From: a virus
Taxonomy: Duplodnaviria; Heunggongvirae; Uroviricota; Caudoviricetes
IMG/VR virus record: IMGVR_UViG_2802429245_000003
DNA: 34,179 nucleotides
Reading direction: 5' to 3' (one strand)
The first letter of the stretch is position 1. The number at the start of each line of letters is the position of its first letter. Made by a program: the position numbers and the translations under genes. The notes beneath the pieces were generated by a model. That model worked only from the letters and a program-made list of their open reading frames with translations. It was not told the origin of the DNA and searched no databases. Of the stretch, positions 4,649 to 32,862 are shown piece by piece.

Positions 4649-4714
4649 TTAATTTGCTCCAGATACAGAAAATCGCTGCAGCGTTGCCGCAGTGATGCAT
4701 TATTAATCAAACAA

Positions 4715-4732
4715 AGAGACCGCCGTGGTCTT
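4715..4732. promoter_or_regulatory. candidate operator: inverted repeat AGACC-N5-GGTCT in the mnt / tailspike intergenic region
   Basis: AGAGACCGCCGTGGTCTT lies about 65 bp upstream of the mnt start; P22 Mnt also binds a GC-rich symmetric operator, but this sequence is not the P22 one. Confidence 0.3.
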
Positions 4733-4794
4733 ATTGAGGATGTAACCATCAGATAATAAGATGCCGATCCACTCACAAAAGCGAGGCATCAAGA

Positions 4795-5046
4795 ATGGGA
4801 AGAGATGACCCGCAATTTAATCTGCGGCTACCTTACGAATTAAAGGAAAAAATAAAACAGCGAGCCAAATCCAATGGCCGCTCTCTTAATTCAGAATTAG
4901 TTCAGATAGTGACTGACGCTGTATCAAAGCCATCCAAAATTTCAGGCTATCGAGACGATGCGGAACGCATCGCTGATGAGCAGTCCGAACTTGTTAAGAA
5001 GATGGTGTTTGATACGCTGAAGGATTTGTACAAAAAACCCACCTGA
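4795..5046 (+). CDS. mnt: Mnt-family ribbon-helix-helix repressor
   Basis: 83 aa; matches P22 Mnt over most of its length from memory (…NGRS.NSEL.QIV.DA.SKPS...GYR.DAER.ADEQSELVKKMVFDTLKDLYKK). N-terminal strand reads PQFNLR (Arc-like) instead of PHFNFR. Confidence 0.9.
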   Translation: MGRDDPQFNLRLPYELKEKIKQRAKSNGRSLNSELVQIVTDAVSKPSKISGYRDDAERIADEQSELVKKMVFDTLKDLYKKPT

Positions 5047-5064
5047 CGGTGGGTTAATTTTTGC
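5031..5064 (+). terminator. rho-independent terminator overlapping the mnt stop codon (bidirectional shape)
   Basis: Stem AACCCACC / GGTGGGTT with loop TGAC, followed by AATTTTTGC and preceded by an A-tract; the mnt TGA sits in the loop. Confidence 0.6.
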
Positions 5065-5145: not shown

Positions 5146-5325
5146 ATGGCGAAAAAACCAGGTGAAAACACAGGAAAAAACGGCGGAATATACCAAGAAG
5201 TTGGCCCACGCGGCGGTAAGAAAGACAATTTTGCCACCGTCAAGGACAACGAAAGGCTTCCGCCAACAACAAAGCCAGGTCATGGCTGGGTATTGGATAA
5301 GCGAACTCCAGACAGCAAAAAGTAA
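5146..5325 (+). CDS. small YjzC-like protein
   Basis: About 59 aa, MAKKPGENTGKNGGIYQEVGPRGGKKDNFATVKDNERLPPTTKPGHGWVLDKRTP, resembling the YjzC-like small-protein family; GAGG ribosome-binding site 6 nt upstream of the ATG at 5146. Confidence 0.5.
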   Translation: MAKKPGENTGKNGGIYQEVGPRGGKKDNFATVKDNERLPPTTKPGHGWVLDKRTPDSKK

Positions 5326-5338
5326 TAATCAAGCCTGG

Positions 5339-5704
5339 TCACTCCGGCTTTTTGATATGTCGCTCGCAGAACTCAACAAGCCTGCTCATTAAATAGCAGT
5401 AAGTCTCGTTGGCTCTTCCTGGTTCAACATCAACACCGACCCTTGAGCAGATATCGAATGCCATGTGAGCGCACTCATGGGCAATAGTAGATAGTTTGCC
5501 ATTGAACACGCCTATCACATGCAAAACACCATTCTCGCTGCTCATTGTATGAGACGCTCCGTTGGCATCCGAGTCCTGCACGTCCACGCCAAGTTTTTGA
5601 TGCAGGCGTTGCCATTCTGGAAAGTCTCTACAAAACACAATTGTACCGCTCTCAAAGAGCGGAACGAGCATCTTTGGTACGTTTCCAATGTTAACTTTTT
5701 TCAT
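5339..5704 (-). CDS. hypothetical protein with HExxH motif (possible small metallopeptidase-like protein)
   Basis: 121 aa from the ATG at 5704 (AGGA ribosome-binding site upstream); contains [10 protein letters not shown]. Family not recognised. Confidence 0.4.
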
Positions 5705-5734
5705 GGTATCCTGCACAAAACTAAGGAGGTTGGT

Positions 5735-6229
5735 GTGTCTGATTCTATGAGTTACGCTGTGCTAGTTGCCGCAACTCTATTTCTGGGGATAGGGTTGCAG
5801 ATTGCGTGGTTCTTTTTTTCTAGTTTTATTAAACGTAAAAGAATTGAATCAAGGATATCTGAGATTTCTATTGCTATAGGGAAAAATGCTGAAAATCCAG
5901 AGAATGAGGCCTGCGCACTGAATTACCTTAAAGAAAAGTTTTCCCCTGAAAAATTTGAAAACAGAATTACTGATGCTCTTGGATTGGTAATATCAGTAAT
6001 TCATATGCCACTAAGTTTGCTGATAACAGTGTGGTACTTCGCCATGATCGCCGGAAGAATATTTGGTTTCATGAATATAGAGCCTGTAGTTCTTTGGGTT
6101 CCAATGATACTGCAATTGTTGTTAAGCGTTGCTATCTTTATTTTTTCTGTTTTTATAAAAATTATCTTTGGAAGATACCCAGGAGAAGCGAAGGGATTTA
6201 ATAAAGAATTCATAAAAACTATAAAATAA
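5735..6229 (+). CDS. AT-rich gene for a predicted polytopic inner-membrane protein; candidate superinfection-exclusion moron by position
   Basis: AGGAGG at 5724-5729 followed by in-frame GTG (5735) and ATG (5747). Three hydrophobic helices ([24 protein letters not shown]; [26 protein letters not shown]; [28 protein letters not shown]). Sits where P22 has sieA, between gene 16 and mnt; no sequence identity established. Confidence 0.5.
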
Positions 6230-6251: not shown

Positions 6252-8093
6252 CTACTGCCGGGTAGCTTCGTTAACTAAGAGCGGGCGCACGGCAGTAGCC
6301 GCCTGATTTAGCGCTCTTTCATAAGCTGGCGTTCCAGCTTTAGTGTTTGCCAGACGTAAGAGCGCATTCCTTGCTGCTTTGGACTCATACAAGCGCATCA
6401 TTGCACCGAAACCAGCCTCAAGCCCCATTGATACGCCAAGAGTCGCAGTTGCGCCAATCGTCCTTATCCTGTTGGCTTGTGATTGCCCAGTCTGAGTTAC
6501 TATATTTGCGGTGTCTGACCTTGCTGTTTGCTGTAGAACTTCATGAAGAGCATCAAGCTCTTTCATGTGCTTTCCAGAAAAAATAGTGTTGTAAATTTCA
6601 CCGCCTGACTGAGATTTCAGCTTATTAACTTCAGTGATGAACTTGGCTGGAGAGTCACCGGCCTTTTCCGCTATTTTGCTGACGTAAGCAGCACGCATAG
6701 CATCTTTCCCTTTATCATCCAGTGCGCTCCAGATTCGTTTCACGTCAGATGGTTTTCTGCTTAATACAACGGTATTTATAAGTTCAGGACTGGCTTCACT
6801 GCTTGCCTTGTTGAGCTTGTTAGCAATGTTTTTATTAAGCACCTTATTATAAACGTTTGCATAATCGGAATTTGCTTTAAGGTATTTTGCTGCGTCTGAT
6901 GCACCGAGGTTTTTAGCAACTGCGTTACGAAGGTCTTTTGACATTGCATTCTCTACCATATTGGTAGCTGCTTTTGCCTGGTTGGGGAAGACCATAGCAT
7001 CTCCCTGTACATTAGATCTAAATGCTGTTCTGTGCTGACGCAAGAGATCAAACGTAACATCCAAATCAGTTGCAGGGTTTGCTAATTCTTCACGTAGGTT
7101 ACGCAAGGATGTAAGCAGGCTTTGATTGGCAGACGTTCCAAGTCGTTCCTGTCTTGCGATCGCTGTATTCAGAGCATTCATGGTATTTGTGGTATCAACT
7201 GCAGCATTACCCATTTTATTGGTGACGTCATTGATAACAGCGCCAGCGGCATCCTTCCGTCTCCTTAGCGTGGTGGTCAGAGATTTCACCACATCATCCG
7301 GGTTGTACTCACCAAAACGGTCAAAATAATTACTTACCAACTTACTACGCGTTGCATATTGCTCTGCCCTTTTACTGCCAGTTCCAAGAATGGCCCCCTC
7401 AGCACCCTGAGTAAGGCCACGAGTGAAAGCATTTTTCGGTGGGATGACATCAGATGTCATTGGTGTCACACCCATTGATTCTGAGGTGGCAATTTTTTTC
7501 GCCACTTCTGGCGCAATATCGCCTTTTATAGCCGTTATTCCGCGCCCTATTCCCTTTGCTGCTGCGGAAAGAACCCCCTGAGCGGCAAGGTTAACTCCGG
7601 CATTTTTAGCTGCATTTTGTGCGAAATCGCCTTTCTGGTTTGCGGCTTCTGCCAGTGATCCAATAGCCATGCTTCCTGCCGTTCCAACTCCTGGAACTAA
7701 ATACCCGCCAATTGTTTCTCCAGCTTGAGCGTAGGGGTCTGTCGGTCGATCGACTGGACGATAGACATCATCCAATACTTTTGGCCCACCAAGCCCCTGA
7801 CTGATTGCATTAATCAGACTTGCGCCACCCTGCAATACGTCAAATGGTATGTTTACCAGACCACGACCAGCCTGCTCTGCAATTTGTCCTGCACTTTGAC
7901 CACCTGTGAGCCAATCGCCAGCTTGTTGCATCAATGATGGTTCTTCACGTGCTGGTTCATTATTGGCCTGATTAACTGTTTGTTGCTGAACAGCCTGACC
8001 AGCAAAATACTCATCAATGGCGGTGCCAATATCTTCGGTGCTCGTGCCATCAGGAAAGGTAAATGTCTTACCGTTTGCAGTTACTTTCATCAT
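6252..8093 (-). CDS. ejection (DNA-transfer) protein, P22 gp16 homologue
   Basis: 613 aa (P22 gp16 is about 609 aa); conserved position as last ejection-protein gene after gp7 and gp20. Confidence 0.8.
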
Positions 8094-26151: not shown

Positions 26152-27471
26152 ATGGATAAAAAATACACAGATAAATTAGAAGCTTGCGAGTACTTGCAAA
26201 ATGTTGACATTTGGCTTGATAATGGAAATGTTGACATGTTTAAAGTATCAGATATTTTAAACAATCTGTTGAAATTAGGTGATTTTGAGAAATTTGACCA
26301 TACACTTTCACTTTTAAAAGCTGAAAGCTTTGCAGAGAAAATAAAGTTTCGTCTTTCACGAGTTGAAAGTCAACGGGATAGTATATTACACGTTATCAGA
26401 GAAGGTGATAAGAATAAAAACCTTAGAAAAATAATACTAAAATCATATGACACAAAAAAAACAGAAATAAAATCACTATTCAATATATTCTCCAGAGAAA
26501 GCGGGCTATATTTTAGGAATAACCATGGAAATCACTACAGTTATTTTGAAGATGATTTCTTAGATTACAGCAATACTGTAAAAAACACACTTAGAGACAA
26601 AGGTTTTGCGAAAAAACTTTTACAGCACAATCAAGAAAAATTTAGAATTCTCGATGATGCGATAGTTCATACTTTCAATCATAATTTCTATGCCATTTCA
26701 GATAAAAATGGTTATTACGACTCAACAAATGCAGCCCGTCTGGCAAAACTTAGCCATGTTAATTATATTAATAACGACAATGAAATAAGATATATTGATA
26801 AGGCTATTTTTTTGCCCATAGACCATGCATGCAATAACTATTATCATGCTCTTAGTGAATGTTTCGGAGGATTGAAATTTATAACAGAATTACCTGATGA
26901 CATTCCTATAGTCTTTACGGAAGACAGATTTAATGTATTGGATTTTATTGCATCGCGCCTATGTATAGACCGCAAACGTTTTATTTCTATACAAACACTT
27001 GCTAATACTCGAATTAAAAAGGCACTACAATTATATCCATATAGTTTTAACTGGAGTGAAGATATTTTTCATTTTTTTAAAAAAATATCATACCCACAAA
27101 CAACAGACTCTAAAATATATATTTCAAGGAGAAAGTCAAGCCGTGGCCCATTAAATGAATTTGAAGTTGAAAATGAGCTTAAAGAATTAGGTTTTGATAT
27201 ACTATACGCTGAAGACCTTGACTTTGCGCAACAGGTTTCAATTTTCTCAAATGCAAGCATCCTTATTGGCCCTCATGGCGCAGGCCTCACCAACATTCTT
27301 TTTATGCCTAAGAATAGCACCCTTATCGAAATATTTAACAGTGAATATATCCAACCTGATTTCTATCTAAGATCTCGCCATAATAACATGAAATATGCAT
27401 GTACCATTCAATTTAATAATACCTTCAATATCGAAGAGATAAAAGAAATCATAGAAAGGTGTCAAGAATAA
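26152..27471 (+). CDS. DUF563 / glycosyltransferase family 61-like protein (AT-rich moron)
   Basis: 439 aa; C-terminal signature …ISRRKSSRGPLNEFEVENELKELGF…ASILIGPHGAGLTNILFMP… typical of GT61/DUF563 enzymes; AGGA ribosome-binding site; AT content much higher than the surrounding phage backbone; no obvious signal peptide or TM helix. Confidence 0.65.
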   Translation: MDKKYTDKLEACEYLQNVDIWLDNGNVDMFKVSDILNNLLKLGDFEKFDHTLSLLKAESFAEKIKFRLSRVESQRDSILHVIREGDKNKNLRKIILKSYDTKKTEIKSLFNIFSRESGLYFRNNHGNHYSYFEDDFLDYSNTVKNTLRDKGFAKKLLQHNQEKFRILDDAIVHTFNHNFYAISDKNGYYDSTNAARLAKLSHVNYINNDNEIRYIDKAIFLPIDHACNNYYHALSECFGGLKFITELPDDIPIVFTEDRFNVLDFIASRLCIDRKRFISIQTLANTRIKKALQLYPYSFNWSEDIFHFFKKISYPQTTDSKIYISRRKSSRGPLNEFEVENELKELGFDILYAEDLDFAQQVSIFSNASILIGPHGAGLTNILFMPKNSTLIEIFNSEYIQPDFYLRSRHNNMKYACTIQFNNTFNIEEIKEIIERCQE

Positions 27472-28980: not shown

Positions 28981-29996
28981 AGCTCCACCCCGTAAATCCA
29001 GTCAGTGTTCGTCAGGTCGAGTTTTGGTTTTCCGGCTGTCACGCCTGCCTGTTGCTTGTTTCGGTTGATTTCGAGCTGGGTCCACTTGTCGCGGAGTTTG
29101 GCCGGACTTAGCACGTTACCGGACCAGAAGTTGTCCTGGCATGCCCAGCGGAACAGCACGCACATGTCGCGGTGGTTACGTCCGTCACGTTCACGCATCA
29201 GGCGGATATCGTTAGCCCACCCTGCAAAATTCGGTTTTCTGGCTGATGGCGCGATGGTCTTCACCATGTCAAACATCCACTCTGCGGCGGTCAGGTCTTC
29301 TGCTGTCCCCCACTTGCTGCCGCTCTGAATTGCAGCATCTGGTTTCACCACAGGAAGATCGTTTTCTGGTTGGTCAGAGGATTCGCCAGAATTCTCGGAC
29401 GAAAAAGATTTTATATTGTCTTTTGTTAGTTTGTCTTTTGTGTTTACCTTATTCGGGTAAACGCCTTTACCTGATTTGGGTAAACTTTTCTTACCTGATT
29501 CAGGTAAATTTACCTCTTTCAGGTAAACTTTATTTTTCTTACCTGATTCGGGTAATGTTGACCATTCACTGACCACATTATTAATACCGATATTCCGCCC
29601 GCTCTGAATCAAAATCCCACGCTTTACCAGAACACTTTTTGCAGCAGAACACTTGTGCGGCAATATCCCGGTCAATTCGGACAGTTGCTCGTTGCTCACC
29701 CAATCCAGTTTTTTATTAAAGCCATATGTTTTGCGCATGACAGCCAGGAAGACCAGAAGCTGGTGCTGTGTTAATCCGGCCAGCATCACAGCTTCCAGCA
29801 ACTCATTTGCAATGCGCGTATAACCATCATCGAGATCTGCCACGCGCGGCTCCTTTTGTGCCGCATCCGGCACTGGAAAATTGAATATCTCAGCAGTGTT
29901 TGCCATAATTCCTCCCGCAATGAGTGTGTTACGATTTGCACCTGAAAGTCGGTTCTGTTCCAGCAGACCGGCTTTCGCCATTTCTGAACCTGTCAT
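28977..29996 (-). CDS. O: replication initiator O, lambda-type C-terminus with divergent origin-binding N-terminus
   Basis: 339 aa; C-terminal two-thirds (…SSENSGESSDQPENDL.VVKPDAAIQSGSKWGTAEDLTAAEWMFDMVKTIAPSARKPNFAGWANDIRLMRERDGRNHRDMCVLFRWACQDNFWSGNVLSPAKLRDKWTQLEINRNKQQAGVTA.KPKLDLTNTDWIYGV.L) matches lambda O; the N-terminal domain differs and contains the iterons. Confidence 0.95.
   Translation of the reverse strand: MTGSEMAKAGLLEQNRLSGANRNTLIAGGIMANTAEIFNFPVPDAAQKEPRVADLDDGYTRIANELLEAVMLAGLTQHQLLVFLAVMRKTYGFNKKLDWVSNEQLSELTGILPHKCSAAKSVLVKRGILIQSGRNIGINNVVSEWSTLPESGKKNKVYLKEVNLPESGKKSLPKSGKGVYPNKVNTKDKLTKDNIKSFSSENSGESSDQPENDLPVVKPDAAIQSGSKWGTAEDLTAAEWMFDMVKTIAPSARKPNFAGWANDIRLMRERDGRNHRDMCVLFRWACQDNFWSGNVLSPAKLRDKWTQLEINRNKQQAGVTAGKPKLDLTNTDWIYGVEL
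29444..29555. repeat. replication origin iterons inside the O gene: five 17-bp TTACC-N7-GGTAA repeats next to an AT-rich tract
   Basis: TTACCTTATTCGGGTAA (29444), TTACCTGATTTGGGTAA (29467), TTACCTGATTCAGGTAA (29491), TTACCTCTTTCAGGTAA (29510), TTACCTGATTCGGGTAA (29539); AT-rich stretch at 29401-29443 in the direction of O translation, as at ori-lambda. Confidence 0.8.
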
Positions 29997-30538
29997 ATCG
30001 CCCCCAGCATGGTAGTAACCATCGCCATCAATGGACCAGCCAGATCTGGGTCCACACGAAACATCGACACAATACCTTCACTAATTTCCTTCAGTTTCTG
30101 GTGGCGTGGTGCGTTGAGAATGACAGCCTGTTTTGCCTCACTGAGTTCCTTTTCCATTTCAGCCAACCTAGCCATGAAGCTATCCTGCTCAACCAGGTAA
30201 CCGCGATATTCCAGCGGTAGTACCGCCAGAATTGCCGGGGTCAGTTCACGCACGTTATTTCGGTATTTTTCAGAATCGAATTTGTTATCGAGGAAGCGGA
30301 ACAGCTTCTGGCGTGCACGGCTGACATCATCAGGGAAATCGATGGTGCCGCCGCCCTGCTCCCGATACTCATTCACAATGAGTGCGGCAACAACATCCTG
30401 ATTATCTGCAGCCGACCAGGCGCGGACGGCATCACGGATTTTTTCGTGGCCTGGAGCTTGTTTTGTTTGAGAACGATTTATCACCGCAGTCGGGCTAAAT
30501 CCGCTAGTCTGTTGGTATGTAAGTGGTTGCATAGTCAT
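29993..30538 (-). CDS. YdaT-like protein occupying the cII position
   Basis: 181 aa between the cro-like gene and O; central region (…NEYREQGGG…LTPAILAVLPLEYRGYL…) resembles E. coli Rac YdaT as I recall it. Confidence 0.6.
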   Translation of the reverse strand: MTMQPLTYQQTSGFSPTAVINRSQTKQAPGHEKIRDAVRAWSAADNQDVVAALIVNEYREQGGGTIDFPDDVSRARQKLFRFLDNKFDSEKYRNNVRELTPAILAVLPLEYRGYLVEQDSFMARLAEMEKELSEAKQAVILNAPRHQKLKEISEGIVSMFRVDPDLAGPLMAMVTTMLGAI

Positions 30539-30790: not shown

Positions 30791-30900
30791 TATCAATTCC
30801 TATTGGTATTGCAATGAACAAATAATAGCAATGCGTATTAATCATAACAATAGCAAAACGTGTTTTGACCATCAATACGCAAGCGTATAAATTAAAACTT
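30791..30900. promoter_or_regulatory. immunity control region (OR-like) with divergent PR/PRM and repeated AATAGCAA(T) operator motifs
   Basis: AATAGCAAT at 30825-30832 and AATAGCAAA at 30849-30856; plus-strand TTGACC (30865-30870) then TATAAA (30886-30891) places a PRM-like promoter whose transcript would start only a few nt before the cI ATG (near-leaderless, as for lambda cI). Confidence 0.5.
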
Positions 30901-31593
30901 ATGAAAAAAGAAACTCTTGCTGATCGCTTAAACCTAGCGATGGAACAATCTGGAATGTCTCAAGGCGCTCTTGCAAAGGCGTCTGGCGTAGCTCAACCCA
31001 CAATCTGGAGACTGACAAGCGGCAACGCGCGCGGCTCAACAAAAATTGTTGAAATAGCTAATGCATTGGGTGTTCGAACAGAGTGGCTCTCATCAGGCAT
31101 AGGCCCGATGAGAAATGACGGTCAACAATTAGGGAAGCCTACTGCCAACCATCCCAAATACTTCAAGATTGACGTTCTTGATATAGAAGTGAGTGCCGGG
31201 CCGGGAGTCATCAACCGTGAGTTTGTAGAAGTTCTACGCTCGGTTGAGTACTCATTTGACGATGCTCGTCACATGTTCGATGGCAGGAAGGCAGAAAATA
31301 TCCGCATCATTAACGTACGCGGTGACAGCATGTCAGGAACGATCGAACCAGGTGATCTTCTGTTCGTTGATATCACTGTTAAATCTTTCGACGGTGATGG
31401 TATCTATGCGTTTCTGTATGACGACACCGCCCATGTAAAGCGCCTGCAAATGATGAAGGATAAGCTGCTGGTTATCTCTGATAACAAGAGCTACTCACCG
31501 TGGGACCCGATCGAGAAAGACGAGATGAACCGCGTGTTCATCTTCGGGAAAGTCATCGGGAGCATGCCGCAGACATATAGAAAGCATGGGTAG
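30901..31593 (+). CDS. cI: CI-like prophage repressor (HTH plus LexA/S24 autopeptidase domain)
   Basis: 230 aa from ATG at 30901; N-terminal HTH (MSQGALAKASGVAQPTIWRL) and C-terminal S24-like domain (…RGDSMSGTIEPGDLLFVD…HVKRLQ…) with the Ser/Lys dyad context. Confidence 0.85.
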   Translation: MKKETLADRLNLAMEQSGMSQGALAKASGVAQPTIWRLTSGNARGSTKIVEIANALGVRTEWLSSGIGPMRNDGQQLGKPTANHPKYFKIDVLDIEVSAGPGVINREFVEVLRSVEYSFDDARHMFDGRKAENIRIINVRGDSMSGTIEPGDLLFVDITVKSFDGDGIYAFLYDDTAHVKRLQMMKDKLLVISDNKSYSPWDPIEKDEMNRVFIFGKVIGSMPQTYRKHG

Positions 31594-31722: not shown

Positions 31723-32862
31723 ATGGCAGCGGTTGAATTTCAATTGTCTAGGAAGATGATTGATTGGATAGCAAATTCTCAAGGAGTTTCTATCGAAACT
31801 CTTGCTGACCAAGTCATGCCCAAAAAGATTAATAAATTTCTTAACGGAGTGGTAAGTAAATCCGCAGCAGAAAAACTGGCAAAAATTGGAGGAATCCCTT
31901 TCGGTTTTTTATTTCTTGAAACGCCACCAACTCCAGCCAAACCCAAGATCCCTGACTTAAGGCAAGCTATAAATAGCCGTGAGTTAGGAAAAGATTTTTT
32001 TGATGTTTACTATGATATAGAATATAAACTTGAGTGGTACAAAGACTATTTAAGAGAAAATGGTAATGATGATCCACTCGATTTTATTGGTAAATTTAAA
32101 TTTAATAGAAAATTAAATTATAAGGTTGTTGCTACAGACATAGCAAACACAATACATTTTGATATACAAAAAGAGATAAAAAATGTCACTTTTGAGAGCT
32201 ATTTTTCTAAAGTGGCAAAACTAATAGAAGACACTGGCGTATTAGTTTTCAAGAATGGTGTTGTGGGTAATAATAATAAAAGAAAACTTGACACGCGAGA
32301 GTTTCGTGGTTTCTGTATATCTGATAGCGTTGCTCCGATCATTTTTGTAAATAGCTCGGACGCGTTATCTGCGCAGGTATTTACATTATTTCATGAGGTG
32401 GCTCATCTTTGGCTTGGAGTCGATGGAGTCTCTGGGTGGGACACAGAAAAAAACATAGAATCTTTTTGTAATAAAGTTGCTGCTGAAATCTTAATGCCTG
32501 ATAATCTCTTCAAATCTTTCTGGCTTAATGCATCCAGCGATAATAATTATTATCGAGTAAAAGAGGTTTCTAAGTTATTTAAGGTTAGTGATTTCGCTTG
32601 TGCAATCAAAGCGTTACAATTAGATTTGATAGAAAGAAACACTTTGGAGATAATTAAAGATCAAGCTTACAATAAGCCCAAAAAAGAATCTAATGGTGGT
32701 TCTTTCTTTAACACATTACCTGTTCGTAACAGTCCAAAACTTACGAATATAATAATTTCCAAAGCAATGTCTCAACAATTACCATTAAGGGAAGCAGGCG
32801 TACTGCTAAATGTAAAAGCAGATACAGTTGTTGAATTTTATAAAAAACGAGAATCTCTATGA
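31723..32862 (+). CDS. HTH plus ImmA/IrrE-family (DUF955, M78-like) zinc metallopeptidase, first gene of a two-gene module in the rexAB slot
   Basis: 379 aa; N-terminal HTH-like region; HExxH motif in FTLFHEVAHLWLG with a downstream Glu; AGGTG ribosome-binding site; markedly AT-rich codon usage compared with cI. Confidence 0.7.
   Translation: MAAVEFQLSRKMIDWIANSQGVSIETLADQVMPKKINKFLNGVVSKSAAEKLAKIGGIPFGFLFLETPPTPAKPKIPDLRQAINSRELGKDFFDVYYDIEYKLEWYKDYLRENGNDDPLDFIGKFKFNRKLNYKVVATDIANTIHFDIQKEIKNVTFESYFSKVAKLIEDTGVLVFKNGVVGNNNKRKLDTREFRGFCISDSVAPIIFVNSSDALSAQVFTLFHEVAHLWLGVDGVSGWDTEKNIESFCNKVAAEILMPDNLFKSFWLNASSDNNYYRVKEVSKLFKVSDFACAIKALQLDLIERNTLEIIKDQAYNKPKKESNGGSFFNTLPVRNSPKLTNIIISKAMSQQLPLREAGVLLNVKADTVVEFYKKRESL

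Follow-up and report, generated by a model that had tools for sequence, protein, structure and literature searches.

A Mnt homolog with an Arc-like strand and a class-matched predicted operator beside the tailspike gene of a P22-like phage

The window, meaning the whole stretch of 34,179 nucleotides analyzed here, belongs to a P22-like (Lederbergvirus-type) phage or prophage and carries the late operon on its minus strand (Table 1). An mnt homolog lies where this family is expected, in the variable segment bounded by the gene 16 and tailspike homologs. Among its neighbors, the sieA-like gene probably starts at an internal ATG at 5735, because the match covers only 5735-6226 of a mechanically called 236-aa ORF on the plus strand (5519-6229); that longer ORF overlaps the PHROG 1365 gene on the opposite strand. 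Neither arc nor ant adjoins mnt in the window, and no P22-type Ant was detected among the ten large early-region ORFs scanned. Control of arc and ant through repression of an ant promoter, which characterizes the complete immI system and not the protein family, was not found at this locus. Elsewhere, the KilA-N/ORF11CD3 protein carries the only antirepressor-like domain among the ORFs scanned, and an operator-like match inside its gene has three mismatches, which is chance level. The 439-aa glycosyltransferase family 61 ORF may be a surface-modification moron.

Table 1. Features of the window discussed in the text, in order of position
Feature	Coordinates	Strand	Basis or remark
Tailspike gene, 918 aa	1892-4648	-	
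Terminator-like hairpin CTGCGGCAACGCTGCAG then CGATTTTCTG	4676..4692	-	Terminator scan; late-operon strand
Predicted Mnt operator AGAGACCGC-C-GTGGTCTTA	4715..4733 (19 bp)	.	Position, uniqueness, class-specific symmetric variation
Predicted mnt promoter	4734..4762	+	-35 TTGAGG 4734-4739, 17-bp spacer, -10 TAAGAT 4757-4762
Ribosome-binding site GAGG	4783..4786	+	8 nt before ATG; read from sequence, conserved in alignment
mnt homolog, 83 aa	4795..5046	+	ATG start; ORF list, Pfam, PDB matches
Bidirectional terminator-like stem-loop AACCCACC-TGAC-GGTGGGTT, T runs on both strands	5036..5055	.	Terminator scan
Small conserved ORF, function unassigned	5146-5325	+	
PHROG 1365 gene	5339-5716	-	
sieA-like gene	5735-6226	+	
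ORF in gene 16/DNA-transfer position of related phages	6252-8093	-	
KilA-N + ORF11CD3 domain protein, 165 aa	20371-20868	-	
439-aa ORF, glycosyltransferase family 61 domain (2.7e-23)	26152-27471	+	Early region, opposite strand to neighbors
YdaT_toxin-domain ORF	29993-30538	-	Adjoins S24-peptidase/HTH repressor pair
S24-peptidase/HTH repressor	30865-31593	+	
379-aa protein, IrrE/M78 peptidase domain	31723-32862	+	After S24-peptidase/HTH repressor

The 83-aa product of the mnt homolog, MGRDDPQFNLRLPYELKEKIKQRAKSNGRSLNSELVQIVTDAVSKPSKISGYRDDAERIADEQSELVKKMVFDTLKDLYKKPT, is Mnt-like over its full length, as the original prediction had proposed. Pfam Arc (PF03869) matches residues 3 to 50 (1.5e-22), which make up the N-terminal ribbon-helix-helix domain, and Repressor_Mnt (PF11423) matches residues 53 to 80 (2.3e-18). 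The solved structure of P22 Mnt (1MNT) aligns without gaps to residues 3 to 77 (5e-34), and the Mnt tetramerization domain (1QEY) aligns to residues 53 to 83 (3e-12). A C-terminal tetramer-forming helix of the Mnt type is predicted from these matches. The strand of the protein reads PQFNLR (Q-N-R class), compared with PHFNFR (H-N-R class) in P22 Mnt, so that Mnt position 6 is Gln here and His in P22, and position 9 is Leu here and Phe in P22. Because the alignment (MGRDDPQFNLRLP in the window, MARDDPHFNFRMP in P22 Mnt, MPQFNLRWP in P22 Arc) carries no shift, the strand truly differs from that of P22 Mnt at positions 6 and 9. The earlier recognition of an Arc pattern was likewise borne out, P22 Arc having the same Q, N, and R at the aligned place. 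The N-terminal arm of the window protein (GRDDP) is Mnt-like, not Arc-like.

We examined the 146-bp intergenic region by comparison with that of P22, which consists of CAGGTCCAC-C-GTGGACCTA, then TTGAGA-17 bp-TATCAT, then the ATG of mnt. The window has the colinear arrangement, in which AGAGACCGC-C-GTGGTCTTA abuts TTGAGG-17 bp-TAAGAT, followed by GAGG-8-ATG; at the same place, ST160 and phage L carry the perfect palindrome TAAGACCAC-G-GTGGTCTTA. From P22 to the window, GGTCC changes to AGACC through the same two substitutions in each arm, mirrored. This comparison supports the palindrome at 4715-4733 as a putative operator, the positional homolog of the P22 mnt operator. Its core inverted repeat, AGACCGCCGTGGTCT (4717-4731), has its center at 4724, near -45 relative to the mnt start predicted here. 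The arm next to the promoter equals the class consensus, and the distal arm has one A-to-G change (CGC for CAC). A search of the 34-kb window for AGACCRCNGTGGTCT with at most two mismatches returned this palindrome as its single match. The AGACC-N5-GGTCT repeat put forward in the original prediction is therefore a real one, abutting the mnt -35 as the P22 operator does and conserved by class in relatives. Its description as neither the P22 mnt nor the arc operator holds to the extent that the window contains no P22-type mnt operator and no arc-type TAGA-N5-TCTA anywhere, but the site is homologous in position to that of P22.

The hexamers and spacing of the predicted mnt promoter are retained in all Q-type loci; a stricter consensus scan reported no promoter in the intergenic region, this one included. 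No leftward tailspike promoter was detected in the intergenic region by consensus scan or by eye. The leftward ant promoter of complete modules is TTGACA-17-TATATT, and its window equivalent, TCGGCA-17-TACATC, has lost the -35 as well as the last T of the -10, the latter because the mnt -35 is TTGAGG and not TTGAGA. The same promoter equivalent is degenerate in every mnt-only Q-type locus. The divergent promoters assumed earlier thus reduce to one, the mnt promoter being intact and the leftward ant-type promoter decayed. The stem-loop at the 3' end of mnt overlaps the stop codon, and the phage L and epsilon34 records annotate a terminator at the same place. On the other side, the terminator-like hairpin of the late-operon strand lies between the operator and the tailspike start (4648), and the equivalent hairpin-forming segment is kept in aligned loci with varying sequence.

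A second inverted repeat, GATGCC...GGCATC (window 4760-4790), is conserved in all Q-type and Sf101-type mnt-only loci. The repeat overlaps the second (3') half of the -10 hexamer and surrounds the ribosome-binding site; its inner pair is CACT/AGTG, or CACC/GGTG in L122 and Sf101. An RNA hairpin in the mnt leader was rejected, since the window fold is no better than shuffles (z = 0.19).

To determine how the strand and the putative operator vary together, we compared loci from IMG/VR, annotated phage records, and exact-sequence contig look-ups for diverged homologs (contig sources included Klebsiella, Serratia, Symbiopectobacterium, and E. coli), reading the operator of each locus as the 19 bp before the TTG of the -35. 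To avoid circularity, only loci retrieved via protein or long-range DNA similarity were counted; those from a DNA pattern scan (L090 to L209) contain the palindrome by construction, served for context discovery only, and were excluded from conservation counts. Of the 77 Q-N-R loci, 72 showed both arms of AGACCAC-N-GTGGTCT, neither arm having more than one mismatch. Four others (L219 from Symbiopectobacterium, L220 from Serratia, L221, and L222) keep the promoter-proximal GTGGTCT alone, with TATCAC distally, and the last, Cronobacter phage ES2 (L088; strand PQINIR), has the palindrome TATAAC-C-GTTATA. The Q-N-R homolog of L227 (strand PQFNVR) has TAGTAC-C-GTACTA. Among the 20 H-N-R loci, all 15 in which the gene has its own promoter show GGTCCAC-N-GTGGACC; the other five are CUS-3-type, with the gene second in an operon. 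A K-T-R strand (PKFTFRMP) was found with Arc and Ant in Salmonella L216/L217 and Serratia L218, all three of which carry TAAGGTCAC-C-GTGACCTTA (AGGTCAC-C-GTGACCT arms). One Q-K-R locus (PQFKLRLP; E. coli STEC383, L226) has TGAACCAC-C-GTGGTTCA, with GAACCAC-C-GTGGTTC arms, and two Q-H-R loci (AQFHLRLP; Sf101 and IME10, L086/L225) have ATACC-GAAAT-GGTAC. Among the 120 homologous protein clusters listed, 88 carry PQFNLRLP and 13 carry PHFNFRMP.

The CUS-3-type regions (L085, which is CUS-3 itself, L069 to L072, and L227) contain two tandem mnt-like genes, with ant present and arc absent. The first strand of the tandem is NPQVNLRLP and the second PHFNFRMP. No P22-type operator was found within three mismatches in L085, L069, or L071, and the CUS-3-type upstream region contains the direct repeat GGTACGCAT.

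Differences among the classes are confined to a few positions of the site. The inner CAC/GTG never varies among the H, Q, K, and Q-K classes, and the G at -6 from the center is retained in the H, Q, and K classes; the classes differ at -4, -5, and -7 (also at -6 in Q-K), and every change is mirrored in the opposite arm. In the Sf101 class (MYSKYDEAQ...), the arginine of the arm is missing, and so is the CAC/GTG center. Mirrored changes at a fixed promoter site that track the adjacent strand are what would be expected of a symmetric protein and its site, and the comparison supports this reading. Operator and gene start fall within 80 bp and are co-inherited, so their co-occurrence is partly linkage, and the independent class switches number about five, not about a hundred.

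Symmetric changes could also be stem compensation in an RNA hairpin or weak terminator of the late transcript running toward tailspike. The terminator scan does list AGACC-ACGGC-GGTCT followed by CTTTGTTTGA on the minus strand, and compensatory changes in both arms would keep a stem too. However, the Salmonella and Klebsiella versions have no T-rich tail, the symmetry extends to within one base of the center, and CAC-N-GTG is invariant in four classes, which would be unexpected for a loop. Given in addition that the palindrome is the positional homolog of the P22 mnt operator and that its sequence varies by class in step with the strand of the neighboring protein, we regard the RNA explanation as highly improbable and the operator reading as the better one.

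The exceptions limit what the strand by itself may predict. The Q-N-R homologs of ES2 and L227 are paired with different palindromes, so the site is not defined by strand residues 6, 8, and 10 alone; on these comparisons, residue 6 appears to be necessary context but no code alone. The original expectation that the repressor probably recognizes a different operator is therefore supported as regards the candidate palindrome, but not as something that Gln6 alone could determine.

We next considered the predicted site in light of how Arc reads DNA. Arc reads the TAGA box through Gln9, Asn11, and Arg13 from both strands, and Q-class Mnt shares Q, N, and R at these three base-contacting positions. 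By this analogy, Gln6 would be the sole base-contacting residue that has changed. Leu9 of the window protein is presumably the counterpart of Arc Leu12, a residue of the protein core. In sequence comparison, the change from GGT to AGA gives the Q-class half-site the AGA of TAGA, about 2 bp farther from the dyad, but the Q-class site overall is Mnt-like, not Arc-like. According to a secondary source, a single residue change in Mnt alters preference mainly at two adjacent operator positions.

An Arc-like strand could instead mean that the protein recognizes an arc-type operator of TAGA boxes and not 4715-4733. The Q-N-R residues are those with which Arc contacts TAGA, and the Q-class half-site AGAC shares AGA with that box. 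An engineered Arc/Mnt hybrid, from the work of Knight and Sauer in 1989, is said to have recognized the arc operator. That Arc/Mnt strand-swap hybrids altered specificity is stated in a paper citing such work. Nevertheless, TAGA-N5-TCTA is absent from the window, the segment that holds the arc operator in P22 (mnt -35 to -10) is unconserved between Q-type subgroups, and the N-terminal arm is of the Mnt type. We consider recognition of an arc-type operator very improbable and retain the Mnt-type palindrome as the predicted site.

Complete modules that combine a TTGACA ant promoter with an Arc-like gene and Ant (L143, L154, L090, and L221/L222) carry Q-class operators too, which indicates that the Q class does control ant elsewhere. 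L143, L154, and L090 are ES18-like siphovirus contigs from IMG/VR whose host is not stated, and a similarity search found no close cultured relative of the L143 immI module. In L143, the strand of the partner Arc is PNFNLRMP (Asn for Gln), and in L221 both Arc and Mnt are Q-N-R; both modules have ATACCACCGT where P22 has the arc operator. A rule that the Mnt and Arc of one module differ at the strand, as in P22 (H versus Q) and L143 (Q versus N), was rejected because of L221. The Q-type loci from the protein-based scan, on the other hand, all adjoin the start of the tailspike gene and lack arc and ant. With these genes missing and the ant promoter decayed, the only target left to the repressor in cis is its own promoter.

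To assess whether such an orphan gene is maintained, we compared the window copy with its relatives over codons 1 to 45. dN/dS was 0.09 against ST160 and 0.025 against the Klebsiella pneumoniae copy, and against phage L, 27 of 31 synonymous sites differ compared with 9 of 104 non-synonymous sites. The window mnt is under strong purifying selection. Synonymous sites are saturated against phage L and Klebsiella, with the operator still present. E. coli, Salmonella, and Klebsiella copies retain the operator, both promoter hexamers, and their spacing, and in Serratia and Symbiopectobacterium the proximal operator arm persists; across that same divergence, the sequence to the operator's left has been rearranged or replaced. 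Among 5,426 complete E. coli genomes, the 501-bp region finds a match in 740, and in 105 of these the match spans at least 80% of it.

These observations bear on the view, given in the phage L paper as one possibility for the L copy, that mnt is a decaying and now functionless relic of an immI region that was deleted. The loss of arc and ant and the decay of the ant promoter are consistent with it. The low dN/dS values, the preponderance of synonymous differences from L, the retention of operator and promoter across three genera, and the abundance of intact copies (the strand in 88 of the 120 clusters listed, the full region in 105 E. coli genomes) are not, and we judge decay to be very unlikely. 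Purifying selection, together with an operator that persists where synonymous sites are saturated, indicates a functional orphan repressor, which is most likely autoregulatory.

Another possible role concerns the tailspike gene itself. A repressor-operator complex might tune late read-through into tailspike, either as a roadblock or together with the 4676-4692 hairpin. According to the epsilon34 paper, this region in P22 influences the frequency with which late transcription extends to tailspike, and Mnt and Arc may be involved. In all mnt-only loci, the operator lies about 65 to 85 bp upstream of the tailspike start, which would suit such a role. However, antiterminated late transcription usually passes bound repressors. 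Moreover, syntenic P22-like phages exist without the whole region (Sf6, APSE-1, APSE-2, and phiSG1) or without mnt (HK620, where the flanks are present, and Scho1). We therefore think read-through tuning unlikely, if somewhat less so than decay.

Taken together, these results suggest that the locus probably encodes a functional Q-N-R Mnt repressor whose predicted target is 4715-4733; in cis the repressor would serve its own promoter, and in trans it may benefit the lysogen against incoming ant. Ribbon-helix-helix dimers would be joined into a tetramer by the C-terminal helix, and the Q-N-R strand would read the 19-bp palindrome abutting the protein's own -35; we infer this binding from sequence comparison. 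Bound at about -45, the repressor would act on its own promoter by activation or repression. In trans, it could silence the ant promoter of incoming phages with the same operator class, and silencing of incoming ant would guard the resident prophage from induction by a foreign antirepressor. The orphan Mnt may thus act on incoming phages of its class, which would require Ant-bearing Q-class phages in the same hosts; these were found only on metagenomic siphovirus contigs with the host unstated. A purely trans role would not need the operator to be conserved in cis, and we therefore take the cis function to be real.

A broader proposal, which we put forward tentatively and consider rather more likely to fail than to hold, is that the loci form a natural series of at least five co-evolved strand/operator classes, that the orphan Q-class Mnt is an "anti-antirepressor," and that phage L Mnt is hetero-specific, not dead. 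Phage L genetically lacks a P22-type immI, and a hetero-specific Mnt, if true, would reconcile this with its mnt gene. The class series, if true, could be a recognition table for ribbon-helix-helix proteins.

How a two-stranded β sheet reads DNA is classically taught with Mnt and Arc, but most of the specificity changes known are those of laboratory mutants. At this locus and in its relatives, natural, selected strand/operator pairs occur at one fixed position, and these could be tested by residue and base swaps. They also suggest a testable purpose for a gene widespread in enterobacterial prophages, many of them in E. coli, Salmonella, and Klebsiella, and previously described as no more than a possible remnant. 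Diversification of specificity among phage repressors is established, as is the role of strand residues in setting it in the ribbon-helix-helix fold. The mnt-only region was recorded earlier for ST64T, ST104, a Paratyphi prophage, and phage L, and published descriptions of the L/ST64T-type copies give an mnt homolog of unclear function. In the literature that could be searched, we found no description of the altered strand/operator class or of the wider class series. The novelty is accordingly modest: the gene and its mnt-only context are already known and annotated, and the strand/operator class is undescribed in that literature.

Records of Salmonella phages ST160, SE1, L, and ST64T and of E. 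coli phages Gally and vB_EcoP-720R6 annotate a protein with this N-terminal domain as Mnt. RefSeq records NC_014900, NC_011802, NC_004348, NC_027398, and others, together with PHROG 795, name Mnt homologs "partition protein ATPase," and some NCBI protein records name them "toxin-antitoxin system HicB family antitoxin." On an 83-aa DNA-binding protein, these names look like propagated misannotations; our reading would have genes of this kind annotated as functional repressors.

Among known systems, P22 Mnt is one of the closest. Both proteins have 83 aa, about 75% identity, and the same two domains; both genes fill the slot between the gene 16 and gene 9 homologs beside a sieA-like gene, with an operator that abuts the mnt -35 and the same promoter layout. 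They differ in that P22 combines PHFNFR with GGTCCAC arms and the window PQFNLR with AGACCAC, and in that the job of P22 Mnt is to silence ant in the lysogen, whereas the window offers no such target in cis. Also close are the Mnt proteins of L, ST64T, ST104, ST160, SE1, Gally, and vB_EcoP-720R6, which share the strand, the operator class, and the mnt-only position beside tailspike. The window protein shares 98.8% identity with its counterparts in Gally and 720R6; the C-terminal helix of L and ST64T is unlike that of the window protein, and the distal operator arm of the window has one extra change.

P22 Arc has the same fold and identical strand residues (Q, N, and R) at the base-contacting positions. 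However, Arc has 53 aa without a tetramerization helix and a different N-terminal arm, and it is transcribed toward ant, whereas the window protein has the Mnt helix and its gene is oppositely oriented with no ant. Arc also binds TAGA boxes, of which the window has no TAGA-N5-TCTA pair. Another close system is the engineered Arc/Mnt hybrids (Knight and Sauer 1989; Raumann et al. 1995), which likewise place an Arc-type strand on a Mnt body. Those are laboratory constructs in which residues outside the strand were swapped too, whereas the window protein is natural and keeps its Mnt arm; the site predicted for the window protein is a Mnt-type palindrome and not the arc operator.
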